64,000 bases of DNA from Candidatus Babeliales bacterium (GCA_040879965.1 JBBDJI010000013.1:367160-431159), one strand, 5' to 3'. Counted from the stretch's first letter, positions 16,242 to 20,547 are shown. Program-made: numbers and translations. Notes: generated from the sequence alone by a model not told the origin.

Positions 16242-16994
16242 TTAACCAATTTTAATATGAAAATTATCTTTATATCGATCTATTGAAATAAATTCTGGTT
16301 GCTGTTTTATTATCACTTGCCATTCATTGATTAAATTTAATAAAGATAAGCAAGAAACTGTTATTTTAGGCAATCGTTCATGAAATTGAAGGTCAGATAT
16401 AGCAACTTTATTATTTTCTATTTCTAAATAACAGCGTTGATAAGCTTTTTCAAAAGATTTGTGTCCATGTAATCTTTTCATAATTTCTTTACGAGCATTA
16501 GGTTTCTTTAAATCTTCTATTAAAAAATAGGCAAGTAACTCAAGTGCATTATTGTTATCATTAATAATCTCATATTGATCGTTTTCTTTAATAAAATGAA
16601 CTGATGATTGTTGAATTTCTTGATAAAATTTACCCTCAATATTTATACTATCATTATCTTGAGTAATGATAATTTCATCAACTTTTTGCTTACGAAGCTC
16701 AATCCATTGGTCAATAATATAACGCAATTCATCTGCAAATATTATAAGGGAATTAGGATCATAATCTAAATCAGGGGAAGTAATTAATATTTTATTATCA
16801 TTAATCTTTTTCAAAAGCATACAATTACCTTCACATTCTTGATATGAACCATCTAAAAATCTATAAATCCATTTACCCCAAAATCCAAAATCATAGAGTA
16901 AAAGCTCACATAAATTTCCAATAGCTGAACCTAATGGCAATTGACCAAATGACTCATAATCATTTTCATATTTATAAAAATGTGCACTTTTCAT
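16242..16994 (-). CDS. candidate immunity protein for the upstream EndoU-like toxin (two tandem homologous halves)
   Basis: The ATG (16994-16992) lies 1 nt after the toxin stop (16998-16996), with an SD 'aaagg' inside the toxin 3' end. No signal peptide. The halves align ('HFYKYENDYE'/'HFIKENDQYE', 'IIDQWIELRKQ'/'LINEWQVIIKQ'). Confidence 0.55.
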   Translation of the reverse strand: MKSAHFYKYENDYESFGQLPLGSAIGNLCELLLYDFGFWGKWIYRFLDGSYQECEGNCMLLKKINDNKILITSPDLDYDPNSLIIFADELRYIIDQWIELRKQKVDEIIITQDNDSINIEGKFYQEIQQSSVHFIKENDQYEIINDNNNALELLAYFLIEDLKKPNARKEIMKRLHGHKSFEKAYQRCYLEIENNKVAISDLQFHERLPKITVSCLSLLNLINEWQVIIKQQPEFISIDRYKDNFHIKIG

Positions 16995-16995
16995 G

Positions 16996-19900
16996 TTAAC
17001 CTTTAAAAACTGGATAATAAGTTATAATTTTTCCAGATTTATTAAATACCATTTTTATCTTAATTCCTTCGTTGGTTTTCCCGATTAATATCCAGTTACT
17101 TTTTTGGGGATTAAATTCAAATAGTTTTTTCTTTTGCTTACAATAATTAAATGCTTCAAAAACTTTTTCATGAACTTTAGTCCTACTCCAATCAGAGGGG
17201 AAAAAAGTTGAAGTTTTAACTTTACCATTCATATATCTCCATTCTAATTCATAAATACCATGTTGCACTTTCTCCATTGATAATATCTCAATTTCTTTCC
17301 CTTTAAAACGCCTGATTTGATTTTTAAACCAACCACCAACATCATGGTGCCAACCAGAGGCTTTGCCCGAAATGGTTATATCCGGTTGGCAAACATGTTC
17401 ATAATTAAAATTAATATCTTTTCCTTCAAAAACGTCATAACCTTTTTCTAGACCATCAAATTTGGAGTGTAATTCTTCTATTTCTTTTGAAAGCTTTTTG
17501 CCAGGTTGCTCGGCAATTTTTTTATTTTTTTTAATATTTTGTTTTTCAGCACGTTTACTAAATTTAGTTTTTTCCGGCGTTTCTATTATTTCTTTTTTTG
17601 CAGATACTTTGCTTTTTGGCTTATATTTATTTTTTGAGGGATCAATACAATTTCCTGATTTATTGCGTACTGTTTTGCGCGTCAAAGAATTGCCTGCTTT
17701 TTGCATTTTGCTTATTTGACTAGTATTTTCACTTGTTTCTGCTACTTTATGTGCATTACTAAGATCTATATCTTTGGGTGCAAAATCCATTTCTTTGCAA
17801 ATGGTATCTTTAACTTTTCCGATAATATCTGATGCTTCTTTTGATCCATGCTCAACTGAACGGACTGCTCCTTGTCCCCATTCGATCGCTTCAATTGCTC
17901 GTACTTCTTTTTGAGCAAGGTTACGTAATTTATTAATAAGATTAAATTGCTCTGGAACTTTTATTACTTGCTGCCCGACTTGCAATAATTGATTGCTCGC
18001 ATTAATCAATAATGGTTTTGTTTTTACAAGCACGGTACTAAAACCACGCCACACAAATGTATCAGCGCAATAATTTATAAGAAGGCTAAATTTTTGGTAA
18101 GTCGGCAATTCATAAAGCGTAGTTAAAACCTCATCAATTTCTTTACGGTATTGTATCTGTAAATCTTGCAACGGCAGATCACCTGAATAAGCAACTGCAA
18201 ATTTACCCATAAAATGTAACAATTGGCCGGTGCCTTTAACTAAATTATATGTTGCTTCTATTGGATGCTGTATCATATCAGTTGTTTCAACCGCTTTTTT
18301 TAGTAATTCTAATCCAGCAATTTCAGAATACTTGCTTAAAATGTTTATACATTTATTTATGGCTTGACGATGTTTGCTACCTAAGCCTATGAAAAAAGCA
18401 TCTCGACGGAGTGCTATTTTTTCTTGTAATTCATTGATATATGCAATGTATTCTTTCAAGCTTAATTCACCAATATTTGAAGGAATAGTTGTGGTAAGAA
18501 TTGATGGCGCTTCATTCTGCATATCAGTAACAATTGTATTAATTTTTTCAATCAATACTTGATTATTATCAATATCACTTACTATTGCTCGTTCTTGTTC
18601 ATTTAAAAATATATACTCCAAGCATTGCGCATCTAGACCAAATGTTTTTTCAACCGTTTCTATAGGGTTACATTTTATTAATGCATTTTTTTCTTCTTCA
18701 ATTATATTAAGCAAACCGAATTGTTTTTGTTCATCAATATCAAATCTTGCTATAATTGTTTCTTGGGGATTAATAAATAGGCCATCATTTTTAAAAGCAC
18801 CTACAAGATTTTGTTGCTCAATACGATTGCATATTTTTTGCAATTTATTTTCACTAAATACCGAATTTTGATGTATCACTTTTCCATATAAATCATCAAT
18901 TGATAAAAGAATGTCTTCTGCATACTTTTTTTCTTCATTAACAACTAAATTTGAATGATGTATTCTTTCTGCAAGTGAAGCGATAATTGGAATAAGACGT
19001 AACTGTAATTTAATATGACGTTCATTTGTATTGATTTGCAAAACATTGCCGCATTTTAATAACGCATCGCTTTGTTGATGATAAATTGCGTGTACAAAAG
19101 ATTGTGCTAAAGAGCGATAGGCTAACGCTACTTTAAGATTTTCGGTATCACATGCCTTCATAATGCATTGAATACCATCATTTACAATATTTTTTAATTG
19201 TTCATCATTTACATCTAAACGAGCCAAATTGAATAAACATTCTCGTTCAATCGCATGTTCTTTAAAATGAATATTAGCAGGAATATTAATATCTTTTAGC
19301 AACTCATTATTGAAGATATCAAGAAATTTTGGCAAGCCACGTTCATCAAATAATTGATCATATACGTCTTTTTCTTCAAGCATGTAACTATCACGATAAG
19401 CACCATGAGCACAAAAATGAGCCATCTTATGAAAATTTTGCGTATCATCAAGAAATAAAACTACATTATATAAGAATTCACTGACTTCTGGAGAAGGCTT
19501 AGTGATACCCACCGTTTGTAACAAATTATTATAGAGCTCTTCACGATATATAAAAAATTCCTTCATTTTTTCATCAGGAATTGGAATTGCATTATTTTTT
19601 TTTATGCGTTCAACAGTGGATAATGAACACTGTTCTGCAATAATATGCTTTCTAATTGTTTTATATAATGGATCTTTTTGAAACTTTTTATCAATACCAA
19701 ATTCATCAAATTTATTTTTAAAATGCGTAAGATATAATTTTCTTAAAAAAGATTTATGTACCTGTCGTGATTCGTTAACAAAATGCCAAAATCCTTTATT
19801 TTGATTGATTATCTCTGCAGCTTTTTGAAATTCATCTTTTTTACACAGATCCATTACTTCTGTAATTTGCTGTAGTGGCTGACTCGAGCTTAATTGTTTT

Positions 19901-20547
19901 TCTAATTGTGAATCATTAAAACATTTATAACTTGAACTCGCGTTATCAATTTCTTTAACGATGGTATAATAATCATACTTAAACCATTCCTTTGTTTGTT
20001 TCTCTAAAGAATCGATAAGTTTATTAAGATCTTTACGATCTGATTCAGTTAATTTTTGCGGTACGCCATTTTTAAACAAAATTCTGGCCATTTTTTCTTT
20101 AGTCGAAATTAAATAGCTATTTAAGGTTGATTCTTGAATTTTAAGGCTCACAAATTCTGGCAAATACAGACGATATTTTTCATCTTTTAAACAGCAATTT
20201 CGTAAAATATTTAATGTATGATTTATTTCTTGTTCAATAACCTGCATTTTAGTTGATAACTTATAACCCTCCCTAGAATGTAGATATCGGTAATAATCGT
20301 TTTTTATTTTGTCTTGAAATATTTCTCGTTGCGCAATAAACGATCTATTTTGCGGGATAACACGCATATCACAAGAAAAGCGATTTGATTCTTGTTGCAA
20401 ATGCCGTACCGCAAAGTTATCTATTGAAACAATTGCAGATCTATTGAAAGCATCCGCTGCTTGATAATTAGCAAGTTCTCTTTCCATACACAAAATGGGA
20501 AAAAACAATATAATGTTTAATGATAAGAAAAATTTTGTCGATTTCAT
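16996..20547 (-). CDS. large secreted protein with a C-terminal EndoU-like RNase toxin domain
   Basis: Signal peptide 'MKSTKFFLSLNIILFFPILC|ME', then ~900 aa of helical region and a Lys-rich linker. The C-terminus 'GWHHDVGG...KVKTSTFFPSDWSRTKVHEKVFEAFNYCK...LIGKTNEGIKIKMVFNKSGKIITYYPVF' resembles bacterial EndoU toxin domains. Confidence 0.65.
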   Translation of the reverse strand: MKSTKFFLSLNIILFFPILCMERELANYQAADAFNRSAIVSIDNFAVRHLQQESNRFSCDMRVIPQNRSFIAQREIFQDKIKNDYYRYLHSREGYKLSTKMQVIEQEINHTLNILRNCCLKDEKYRLYLPEFVSLKIQESTLNSYLISTKEKMARILFKNGVPQKLTESDRKDLNKLIDSLEKQTKEWFKYDYYTIVKEIDNASSSYKCFNDSQLEKQLSSSQPLQQITEVMDLCKKDEFQKAAEIINQNKGFWHFVNESRQVHKSFLRKLYLTHFKNKFDEFGIDKKFQKDPLYKTIRKHIIAEQCSLSTVERIKKNNAIPIPDEKMKEFFIYREELYNNLLQTVGITKPSPEVSEFLYNVVLFLDDTQNFHKMAHFCAHGAYRDSYMLEEKDVYDQLFDERGLPKFLDIFNNELLKDINIPANIHFKEHAIERECLFNLARLDVNDEQLKNIVNDGIQCIMKACDTENLKVALAYRSLAQSFVHAIYHQQSDALLKCGNVLQINTNERHIKLQLRLIPIIASLAERIHHSNLVVNEEKKYAEDILLSIDDLYGKVIHQNSVFSENKLQKICNRIEQQNLVGAFKNDGLFINPQETIIARFDIDEQKQFGLLNIIEEEKNALIKCNPIETVEKTFGLDAQCLEYIFLNEQERAIVSDIDNNQVLIEKINTIVTDMQNEAPSILTTTIPSNIGELSLKEYIAYINELQEKIALRRDAFFIGLGSKHRQAINKCINILSKYSEIAGLELLKKAVETTDMIQHPIEATYNLVKGTGQLLHFMGKFAVAYSGDLPLQDLQIQYRKEIDEVLTTLYELPTYQKFSLLINYCADTFVWRGFSTVLVKTKPLLINASNQLLQVGQQVIKVPEQFNLINKLRNLAQKEVRAIEAIEWGQGAVRSVEHGSKEASDIIGKVKDTICKEMDFAPKDIDLSNAHKVAETSENTSQISKMQKAGNSLTRKTVRNKSGNCIDPSKNKYKPKSKVSAKKEIIETPEKTKFSKRAEKQNIKKNKKIAEQPGKKLSKEIEELHSKFDGLEKGYDVFEGKDINFNYEHVCQPDITISGKASGWHHDVGGWFKNQIRRFKGKEIEILSMEKVQHGIYELEWRYMNGKVKTSTFFPSDWSRTKVHEKVFEAFNYCKQKKKLFEFNPQKSNWILIGKTNEGIKIKMVFNKSGKIITYYPVFKG

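Follow-up and report, generated by a model that had tools for sequence, protein, structure and literature searches.

Two adjacent genes on the minus strand of the 64,000-nucleotide stretch of Candidatus Babeliales DNA that we analysed (the window) are best explained as a module from a Dependentiae (Babeliales) bacterium that pairs a polymorphic toxin with its immunity protein, a reading that we consider probable. It is very likely that they encode a genuine EndoU toxin together with the immunity protein that matches it, as members of a polymorphic-toxin family; as for the target, we give an even chance to a rival bacterium as against the host. The first-pass annotation, made by reading the sequence, had placed two open reading frames here, and both are borne out:

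16996..20547, minus strand: predicted toxin gene, 1183 aa, stop codon included (ORF list; identical protein on an independent assembly; Pfam match; homologue search)
16242..16994, minus strand: putative immunity gene, 250 aa, stop codon included, no signal peptide (ORF list; HMM from non-window members)

The toxin gene encodes, in order, a predicted signal peptide, a conserved helical scaffold, a Lys-rich linker and an EndoU RNase domain, and the identical 1183-aa protein is also encoded on an independent Logan assembly (run SRR27977663):

20488..20547, minus strand: predicted Sec-type signal peptide, aa 1-20 (MKSTKFFLSLNIILFFPILC), the sole hydrophobic segment of the toxin
17866..20313, minus strand: scaffold region homologous to relatives, aa 79-894 (representative search, alignment A1, pairwise BLASTP)
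18778..19905, minus strand: most conserved scaffold core, aa ~215-590 (alignment A1, 17 proteins)
17863..18315, minus strand: pre-toxin 'HP[ILV]' module, aa ~745-895 (local iterative HMM search)
17428..17745, minus strand: Lys-rich low-complexity linker, aa ~935-1040 (Lys content)
17008..17499, minus strand: EndoU RNase toxin domain (PF14436; conserved N-terminal extension from aa ~1017; alignment A3)

Residues 3-21 of the toxin are hydrophobic and signal-like (mean Kyte-Doolittle hydropathy 1.74), in agreement with its proposed secretion, and the hydropathy scan revealed no second TM-like segment in the 1183-aa protein. Directly after the predicted signal peptide comes M-E-R-E, an instance of the lineage-typical junction '[G/A/C]-M-[D/E/Q]', which is found in 11 of the 32 signal-bearing ORFs of the window and also in scaffold-family relatives. 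About half of the ORFs in the window have signal-like N-termini, and the signal/'M-[D/E/Q]' junction is common to the toxin and a neighbouring WD40-like protein of eukaryote-like flavour. The Lys-rich linker noticed ahead of the toxin domain is likewise present, Lys making up 23% of aa 950-1050. The toxin locus lies within a variable stretch flanked by syntenic genes.

The C-terminus of the toxin is confirmed by profile search as an EndoU-type RNase domain, and RNase activity is predicted. In this search, aa 1050-1180 (nt 17008-17400) aligned to positions 6-128 of the 129-position Pfam profile EndoU_bacteria (PF14436) with an E-value of 8e-15; the score of 55.8 bits, where the gathering cut-off is 25.3 bits, puts the match far beyond chance. 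The domain ends 3 residues short of the toxin stop, and it occupies the extreme C-terminus in 133 of 135 homologues. The EndoU assignment of the first pass thus stands, and the motifs that it quoted are present in the toxin. All residues invariant among 60 aligned homologues are retained, including H1051 and H1067, which are 100% conserved; the conserved residues kept in the toxin are H1051, G1065, H1067, H1068, D1069, K1111, T1114, FFP1115-1117, W1120, K1128, T1158 and YP1178-1179. The toxin therefore has the pattern of the EndoU/XendoU superfamily, namely two His residues (~16 residues apart), a Lys in K-x-S/T-x-F-F and a Ser/Thr, as it keeps K1111-T-S-T-F-F-P, T1158 and T1176. Three of the retained residues are candidates for catalysis:

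17395-17397, minus strand: candidate catalytic H1051
17347-17349, minus strand: candidate catalytic H1067
17215-17217, minus strand: candidate catalytic K1111

These assignments were mapped from the literature and from what we take to be the XendoU motif, not from a structure. The catalytic residues of EndoU RNases have been described as an H-H-K triad (PMC9086364) or as H, H and S/T (PMC3482391). A single-sequence AlphaFold model of the toxin C-terminus was of low confidence (pLDDT 60.9); in a Foldseek search of the PDB with this model, XendoU (2c1w) ranked second and had the top probability (0.96; E 0.035, TM 0.36). A profile of the toxin's EndoU clade reached no PDB sequence.

The designation of the 250-aa protein as the putative cognate immunity protein of this toxin is supported by comparative evidence. 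The first-pass annotation had argued from gene position only; the argument is now comparative because the same family lies directly 3' of this clade's EndoU toxins in all five loci examined. The elements concerned are as follows:

17000..17004, minus strand: AAAGG Shine-Dalgarno-like element for the immunity gene, within the last toxin codons (read from the sequence)
16620..16994, minus strand: immunity domain 1, aa 1-125 (halves align; independent HMM domain match 5e-16)
16245..16619, minus strand: immunity domain 2, aa 126-250, the more divergent copy (independent HMM domain match 8.8e-7; alignment A2)

The junction reads ...AAAGGT TAA C ATG, with a 1-nt gap and with AAAGG 5 nt before the ATG, which bears out the suggested coupling through a Shine-Dalgarno element inside the toxin gene; the absence of a signal peptide also holds, as no signal-like hydrophobic region was found in the 250-aa protein. 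This protein consists of a ~125-aa domain repeated in tandem: its two halves can be aligned from end to end (E 0.002), and BLASTP with domain 1 matched L082_136 at 2e-6 and L088_122 at 7e-8. An HMM built only from genes immediately 3' of EndoU toxins in loci L082, L084, L088 and L089, with the window excluded, had the 250-aa ORF as its sole significant match in the six-frame translation of the window (E 5.3e-22, two domains). Across the EndoU loci, toxin and immunity genes are separated by gaps or overlaps of 1-14 nt, and two-domain versions also stand behind other toxins (one of 275 aa in L089; two, of 236 and 259 aa, in L088). Neither the window protein nor 10 other members had a Pfam match with E < 0.01, known immunity families such as Imm, SUKH and SuFu included, and the family profile found no PDB sequence. 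At the level of sequence, the immunity family is a new, previously undescribed one.

The module might alternatively be a non-functional relic in a reduced genome, its EndoU domain being without present activity. The location in a variable region and the lack of the AAA+ ATPase neighbour found in all relatives checked would be compatible with such decay; however, both ORFs are intact (1183 and 250 aa), the family-invariant residues of the EndoU domain are all kept, the GC content of the toxin/immunity locus is in line with that of the surrounding genome and the translational coupling is preserved. We therefore regard decay as extremely improbable.

The ~900-aa N-terminal scaffold is, judging from the database searches, a new, lineage-specific and previously undescribed family. 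The first ~1000 aa of the toxin had no significant match in Pfam, NCBIfam, PADLOC, PHROGs or PDB sequences, and the scaffold core matched no Pfam family. The earlier description of the scaffold as undescribed is upheld in that it has no Pfam or PDB family match, but the scaffold is not unique, as at least 16 relatives with swapped C-termini were found, the best being P0003 (E 2e-63). Their shared core carries the motifs N.DL..LC, YGI..Y..DP.Y, NPSP, GLPK, HA.ER..LF.L, GI.Y...AC and YRSLAQ. The 'HP[ILV]' module, in which H-P-I-E-A-T occupies aa 761-766 of the toxin, was detected in 67 of 149 proteins by local iterative HMM search (E-values being indicative only, given the small database) and is common to many EndoU proteins without the N-terminal core. 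Two of the relatives have organism names: P0034 is annotated as Candidatus Dependentiae bacterium and P0005 as Candidatus Babeliales bacterium, the latter being a toxin-scaffold paralogue in the same genome and also found in the same SRA run. As to lineage, DnaE had its closest matches in Babeliales MAGs. The scaffold relatives carry at least seven C-terminal types: EndoU in P0011 and P0034, Ntox35 (above the cut-off in P0063, below it in P0006 and P0133), a DUF4258-like C-terminus (below the cut-off) and at least four unrecognised types. Scaffold similarity and C-terminal type are discordant, as P0003 is closest in scaffold but ends in an unrelated C-terminus and the EndoU-bearing P0011 and P0034 are two of the three most distant scaffolds.

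Downstream genes vary along with these C-termini. P0004 and P0019 are of one C-terminal type, and the genes downstream of them, of 116 and 117 aa, are homologous (E 3e-18); P0005 and P0008 also agree in C-terminal type, but no similarity was detected between the genes first downstream of them. The family would thus appear to hold its N-terminus constant while exchanging C-terminal domains together with matching downstream genes. A scaffold family with swapped tips and co-varying downstream genes therefore points to a polymorphic toxin system whose scaffold and immunity family are both new. A purely nutritional role, in which EndoU would degrade RNA for nucleotide scavenging and the downstream gene would be functionally unrelated, has a parallel in the endoU of Chromulinavorax destructans, which Deeg et al. 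interpreted in this way as part of host biopolymer breakdown, and would suit the lack of biosynthetic pathways in Dependentiae (PMC6561590). However, scavenging predicts neither C-terminal shuffling nor orphan cassettes, the scaffold relatives end in toxin domains that are unrelated or are not nucleases, such as Ntox35, and the downstream family is repeatedly and tightly coupled to EndoU C-termini; we thus consider this role very unlikely.

The loci of relatives point in the same direction as the polymorphic-toxin reading. An orphan EndoU fragment occurs in one relative and extra immunity genes in several: locus L084 has the order toxin, immunity, 115-aa EndoU fragment, immunity, immunity, and multi-immunity arrays are found at L084, L088, L093 and L094, the arrays including immunity-like genes of other C-terminal types. 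An AAA+ ATPase gene adjoins the toxin in 10 of 10 relatives checked. At the window locus itself there is a single immunity gene, and neither an orphan cassette nor an AAA+ ATPase neighbour is present. Zhang et al. (2012) set out criteria for polymorphic toxins and used immunity genes to infer intraspecific conflict (PMC3482391). Of the features they describe, we found a multidomain protein with predicted export whose toxin domain lies at the very C-terminal end, a conserved N-terminus with alternative, unrelated C-termini, and a co-varying downstream immunity gene (the P0005/P0008 pair being the exception); orphan cassettes and poly-immunity arrays are present in relatives but absent at the window locus.

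These arrays also bear on the possibility that the toxin is a host-directed effector, which would be exported, reach the protist host by outer-membrane vesicles or another route and cleave host RNA, thereby shutting down host functions or freeing nucleotides, with the 250-aa protein serving as an antitoxin for self-protection before export. Babeliales are obligate intracellular parasites whose secreted proteins are generally held to act on the host, the secreted nucleases of Chromulinavorax are viewed as host-directed effectors, and the proportion of signal-like N-termini in the window resembles that reported for Chromulinavorax (PMC6561590). The junction shared with the eukaryote-flavoured WD40-like protein and the lack of any known inter-bacterial delivery domain in the toxin would fit as well, and the Lys-rich linker could, speculatively, be a nuclear or RNA-targeting segment. 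On the other hand, Zhang et al. argue that immunity genes are as a rule missing where intracellular bacteria direct a toxin at their host (PMC3482391), whereas the immunity family is conserved here, and self-protection alone leaves unexplained the other-type immunity genes and the orphan EndoU fragment in the relatives' arrays. We hold the host-effector explanation to be a serious but unlikely one, and the orphan toxin fragments and multi-immunity arrays of relatives make us lean towards an inter-bacterial role.

Under the polymorphic-toxin reading, the 1183-aa protein would be exported by the Sec pathway via its N-terminal signal peptide, and its RNase would probably be a metal-independent His-His-Lys endoribonuclease leaving 2',3'-cyclic phosphate ends, as in its family. 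Cutting of RNA, most likely tRNA or another abundant RNA, would kill or arrest the target cell. The two-domain 250-aa protein, presumably cytoplasmic and translationally coupled 1 nt downstream, would inhibit the RNase by binding it, both in the producer and in its sister cells, as the conserved gene pairing suggests. Because the scaffold swaps C-termini and downstream genes, and because relatives have additional immunity genes and an orphan fragment, the module most likely serves related Dependentiae in competing with one another when they come together in one host cell or niche.

As for delivery, the first-pass annotation had recognised no delivery features, and searches agree: the toxin had no TPS/FHA/VENN, RHS/PAAR, LXG/WXG or DUF1020 match in Pfam or NCBIfam, 75 of its closest EndoU relatives had no class-defining delivery domains apart from one PT-HINT, and no T5SS, T6SS or T7SS markers, RHS or PAAR were found as a delivery module. 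Dependentiae may have a previously unrecognised trafficking mode of their own for polymorphic toxins, composed of the helical scaffold, the 'HP[ILV]' module and a membrane-anchored Cdc48/NSF-like AAA+ ATPase, although we regard this idea as doubtful. As the ATPase gene adjoins the toxins of relatives but is absent at the window locus, it would have to act in trans here. If such a mode exists, it would enable obligate intracellular bacteria to fight each other within a eukaryotic cell that they share, or to deliver nucleases into their host, and the conserved signal-peptide junction, from which a Met-Asp/Glu/Gln mature N-terminus would result, would be part of an export or host-stability logic.

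Among known systems, CdiA-CT/CdiI of E. coli STEC_O31 (PDB 5HKQ) pairs an EndoU tRNase of contact-dependent inhibition with an immunity protein, and shares with our module a C-terminal EndoU-type RNase with a His-His-Lys site (predicted here) and, directly 3', the gene of a small protein that neutralises it (putatively so here) (PMC9086364). In contrast to CdiA, TPS, FHA-repeat and VENN features and a CdiB partner are absent here, and the toxin's EndoU clade is too distant from CdiA-CT for a profile-to-PDB sequence match. The immunity protein has no sequence relation to CdiI; its low-confidence model had 5hkq_I as the top-probability Foldseek match, which was non-significant (E 0.63, probability 0.51, TM 0.44), and the secondary-structure elements are predicted to come in a different order in the two. 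With no Pfam match, the scaffold shows no sequence relation to those of S. aureus S8-Ntox35 (PMC13556192) and of the TANFOR-domain polymorphic toxins found in Bacteroidetes (PMC7073777); Ntox35 is also a C-terminal type of this scaffold family.

Similar in lifestyle are the signal-peptide ('T2SS'-class) toxins and effectors of amoeba symbionts, represented by the Odyssella systems and the Amoebophilus APD1/APD2 prodomain effectors, which are likewise exported families of protist-dwelling bacteria with a lineage-specific N-terminus and diverse C-termini (PMC3482391). They belong to a different phylum and their N-terminal domains are unrelated to ours; the Amoebophilus effectors lack immunity genes, whereas the scaffold family described here has them, and Odyssella is a rare intracellular case of full toxin-plus-immunity systems (PMC3482391). 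In architecture, the module is closest to MafB/MafI of Neisseria, the Sec-dependent EndoU precedent, in which MafB(MGI-1 NEM8013) is an EndoU RNase (PMC4287609). The two systems differ in that our scaffold has about three times the length of that in MafB and is unrelated to it (no DUF1020/PF06255 match), the immunity family is another one, the phylum and lifestyle are those of an obligate intracellular parasite of protists, and the window's own locus has no upstream accessory gene. They have in common an immunity gene immediately 3' of the toxin, orphan C-terminal and immunity cassettes (here in relatives) and a conserved accessory gene directly upstream, which is mafA in Neisseria and the AAA+ ATPase gene in Dependentiae relatives (PMC4287609).

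The proposed toxin and the gene that follows it lie on one strand and appear in the ORF list as follows.

16996..20547, minus strand: toxin ORF, 1183 aa
16242..16994, minus strand: immunity ORF, 250 aa

The sequence between them reads AAAGGT-TAA-C-ATG, and therefore the 250-aa gene begins 1 nt past the toxin stop, with an AAAGG element 5 nt ahead of its ATG. As no TM-like segment was found in the 250-aa protein, the earlier reading of a downstream gene that directly adjoins the toxin stop and lacks a signal peptide holds. The toxin itself starts with MKSTK and a hydrophobic stretch of 15 residues, its sole TM-like segment, and would be exported by the Sec pathway. 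An independent assembly from SRR27977663 encodes an identical large protein, and the GC content of the toxin region (0.29–0.30) equals that of the remainder of the window. A lipoprotein reading of the toxin was rejected because the residues preceding Cys20 make no lipobox, and a classical type II toxin-antitoxin system was rejected because of the length of the toxin (1183 aa) and its export signal.

The Pfam EndoU_bacteria profile covers aa 1050–1180 of the toxin (E 8e-15; 55.8 bits, cut-off 25.3). An exhaustive HMMER search over 1.84 billion representatives gave 293 matches; the C-terminal domain is common to 135 proteins among the matches listed and stands at the extreme C-terminus in 133 of these. 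Across 60 aligned homologues, H1051 and H1067, spaced by 16 residues, are invariant, and GxHHD, K1111-x-S-T-F-F-P, W1120, K1128, T1158, T1176 and YP1178–1179 are also conserved; the window toxin keeps every one of these residues. The active site of published EndoU toxins is described as His-His-Lys (PMC9086364) or as H, H and S/T (PMC3482391). The profile score above the Pfam cut-off and the retained motifs confirm the EndoU-like C-terminus proposed in the first-pass annotation, by which the toxin would cleave RNA of its target. A single-sequence AlphaFold model of the C-terminus was of low confidence (pLDDT 61), and XendoU was its highest-probability Foldseek match, which was not significant. 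PDB sequence searches with the toxin C-terminus and with a profile of the EndoU clade gave no match, and neither did a scan of species-representative genomes for the toxin; word-indexed homologue searches recovered at most the query itself, whether started from the full toxin, from the 250-aa protein or from the C-terminal domain, and NCBIfam, PADLOC and PHROGs gave no meaningful match. Among the 75 closest EndoU proteins, no known delivery domain was found beyond one PT-HINT.

In four of four loci of EndoU relatives, a small gene stands directly after the toxin gene, spaced from it or overlapping it by 4–14 nt.

Genes directly downstream of EndoU toxins in relatives
L082: toxin P0011, downstream gene of 136 aa
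L084: toxin P0034, downstream gene of 129 aa
L088: toxin P0007, downstream gene of 122 aa
L089: toxin P0009, downstream gene of 275 aa

These four downstream proteins are homologous to each other and to the window protein. An HMM built from the non-window members only matches the window ORF as two domains (E 5.3e-22), its sole significant match when the window is translated in all six frames; this match and the occurrence of the family after EndoU toxins in other loci support the earlier reading of the downstream gene as an immunity gene. The two halves of the 250-aa protein can be aligned over their whole length at 25% identity (E 0.002), and L089 and L088 likewise encode two-domain versions. 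Judged by sequence, the 250-aa protein is a member of this putative immunity family, which has no Pfam match and no PDB sequence match, the family profile included. Its single-sequence AlphaFold model was of low confidence (pLDDT 50). For the low-confidence model of the N-terminal domain 1 (16620-16994), the top-probability Foldseek match in the PDB was 5hkq_I, the CdiI that pairs with the EndoU toxin of E. coli STEC_O31; this match was not significant (E 0.63, probability 0.51, TM 0.44), and the order of secondary-structure elements in the model is unlike the published one. We take the XendoU and CdiI-STECO31 matches of these predicted structures as hints only. The immunity protein would inhibit the toxin through binding. 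No further EndoU or immunity cassettes were found in the window.

The N-terminal part of the toxin had been put forward as an undescribed scaffold. This stands in that a PDB sequence search with the scaffold gave no match and no known delivery domain was found; the scaffold is not unique, however, as at least 16 proteins of ~800–1200 aa match toxin aa ~80–900 (best P0003, E 2e-63), with a conserved core at aa ~215–590. The C-termini of these relatives are of several types.

C-terminal types among scaffold-family proteins
EndoU: P0011, P0034
Ntox35-like: P0063, which passes the Pfam cut-off, and the sub-threshold P0006 and P0133
DUF4258-like: P0136 (sub-threshold)
A type common to P0004 and P0019
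A type common to P0005 and P0008
Singletons: P0003, P0100, P0139

Scaffold kinship and C-terminal type are discordant: the nearest scaffolds bear unrelated C-termini, and the EndoU-bearing relatives are two of the three most distant. The genes downstream of P0004 and P0019 are homologous (E 3e-18), and arrays downstream of toxins hold immunity-like gene copies from other C-terminal types; in L084 the order is toxin, immunity, EndoU fragment (115 aa), immunity, immunity. Such traits define polymorphic toxin systems (PMC3482391). At the level of sequence, the domain identity, the retained active-site motifs, the coupled gene pair and the family-wide shuffling of C-termini and immunity genes are established, and the locus is very probably a genuine EndoU toxin and cognate immunity pair of a polymorphic-toxin family. 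Among the relatives, P0034 carries the annotation of a Candidatus Dependentiae bacterium and P0005 that of a Candidatus Babeliales bacterium; one SRA run contains both P0005 and the window protein, and therefore the genome of the window holds at least two scaffold-family members.

P0005 has a different C-terminus, with the motif YLD.LH.DH.EVF. The gene downstream of it (L090:5210-5515) encodes a DUF6980 protein of 101 aa (PF22400, E 2.6e-14), a candidate for the immunity family of this toxin type; P0008 shares the C-terminal type, and the first gene downstream of P0008 is not similar. A further module at aa ~745–895, marked by the motif HP[ILV], was counted in 67 of 149 proteins, EndoU proteins without the N-terminal core among them, a count that comes from an iterative search of a small database and is indicative only. 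Next after the P0011 immunity gene, L082:9872-11212 encodes a 446-aa protein whose N-terminus is signal-like and whose C-terminus is hydrophobic; by eye it seems to hold a copy of part of the scaffold core, and it gave no significant match to the immunity HMM.

An AAA+ ATPase gene (PF00004; nearest in the PDB to NSF/Cdc48/p97) adjoins the toxin gene in all ten relatives looked up, nine of which belong to the scaffold family; the tenth, P0009, is an EndoU toxin whose N-terminus differs. The ATPase gene usually lies directly upstream on the same strand.

AAA+ ATPase genes at relatives' loci
L082:3575-5979
L084:4305-5897
L086:2047-3357 and 7187-8518
L089:548-1897
L090:674-2134
L091:2292-5998
L093:2790-3992
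L094:474-2658
L095:2532-3989
L096:4492-5547

The L090 copy, the one inspected, combines a signal-like N-terminus with a C-terminal helix that is hydrophobic. No such toxin-associated ATPase was found in the window, where the sole tblastn match, a P-loop gene at 7087-8109, is unrelated, and ORFs 9833-11320 and 11356-12660 have no Pfam match.

The window holds no rRNA gene. DnaE from the neighbouring gene shares 62–71% identity with its counterparts in MAGs that bear the label Candidatus Babeliales (or a mistaken label) and ~45% with all others. L004, a Babeliales MAG locus, is syntenic on both flanks (window 7087–9747, and dnaE with three genes downstream) and departs from the window between 9747 and 22241, the interval that holds the toxin locus. 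This variable stretch, flanked by a syntenic yicC-like gene (8854-9747) and dnaE (22241-25684), spans ~12.5 kb in the window versus ~3.9 kb in L004. Besides the toxin and immunity genes, it contains two Pfam-less ORFs of 495 and 434 aa and genes for a secreted beta-helix protein, a pair of small paralogues and a WD40-like protein.

14591-15238 and 15596-16213, plus strand: tandem paralogues of 215 and 205 aa (33% identity), signal-like N-termini, no Pfam family; convergent to the immunity gene
20688-22106, plus strand: 472-aa protein, signal-like N-terminus, weak WD40/beta-propeller matches; divergent from the toxin gene

Similar weak WD40 matches occur in proteins at L084:1-2156, which places them ~4-6 kb upstream of P0034, also an EndoU toxin; WD40-like proteins near both EndoU toxins may be chance, the lineage being rich in them.

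Signal-like N-termini were found on 32 of the 56 window ORFs of at least 100 aa, an abundance comparable to that known from the Babeliales isolate Chromulinavorax (PMC6561590). Further tandem ORF pairs, 46705-47100 / 47258-47647 and 58015-59082 / 59142-60419 (all minus strand), have near-identical signal-like N-termini (MKFK..YLSLLSIFF.C and ..LLL...V.LQAMVEF), which suggests local duplication of putatively exported proteins. After the hydrophobic region, a [G/A/C/P]-Met-[Glu/Asp/Gln/Val/His] junction recurs in 11 of the 32 signal-bearing ORFs.

Starts of junction-bearing genes
Plus strand: 3134, 6369, 11356, 20688, 52715
Minus strand: 20547, 32289, 46401, 59082, 60419, 63832

The same junction is present in scaffold-family relatives P0003-P0133 from other Dependentiae and in the toxin-adjacent ATPase L090:674. 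A cut before the junction Met would leave a Met-Asp/Glu/Gln mature end, like that of a eukaryotic cytosolic protein; alternatively, this Met would be the internal start of an isoform kept from export.

Polymorphic toxin–immunity systems usually mark bacteria that encounter competitors. The presence of a complete family of this kind in Dependentiae, protist parasites that form a poorly known phylum, suggests that they compete with relatives within or around their hosts; alternatively, Dependentiae may have adapted the polymorphic-toxin design for host attack. Conflict among related bacteria is favoured because of the immunity arrays and the orphan cassette in relatives, and we rate related bacteria as the target at about even chances. 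That the toxin is aimed at the host is rather unlikely in our judgement: the intracellular lifestyle and the lack of a known inter-bacterial delivery device speak for it, whereas the same arrays and orphan cassette point to conflict between related bacteria, and toxins of intracellular parasites are generally reported to lack immunity genes (PMC3482391). Large 'hypothetical proteins' that recur in Dependentiae genomes gain names and testable functions, and a new EndoU/immunity pair becomes available to structural work.

We found no literature tying Dependentiae to polymorphic toxins, and Deeg et al. treat endoU solely as a degradative nuclease (PMC6561590). The nearest architectural analogue of the toxin module is Neisseria MafB/MafI, which combines a signal peptide, a genus-restricted N-terminal domain and a variable C-terminus, with EndoU among the options, and has an immunity gene downstream, orphan cassettes and an accessory gene upstream (PMC4287609). 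The toxin scaffold and immunity protein described here are unrelated to those of MafB/MafI; in this predicted family the scaffold and the immunity domain are new, and its relatives also have orphan cassettes and a conserved ATPase partner.
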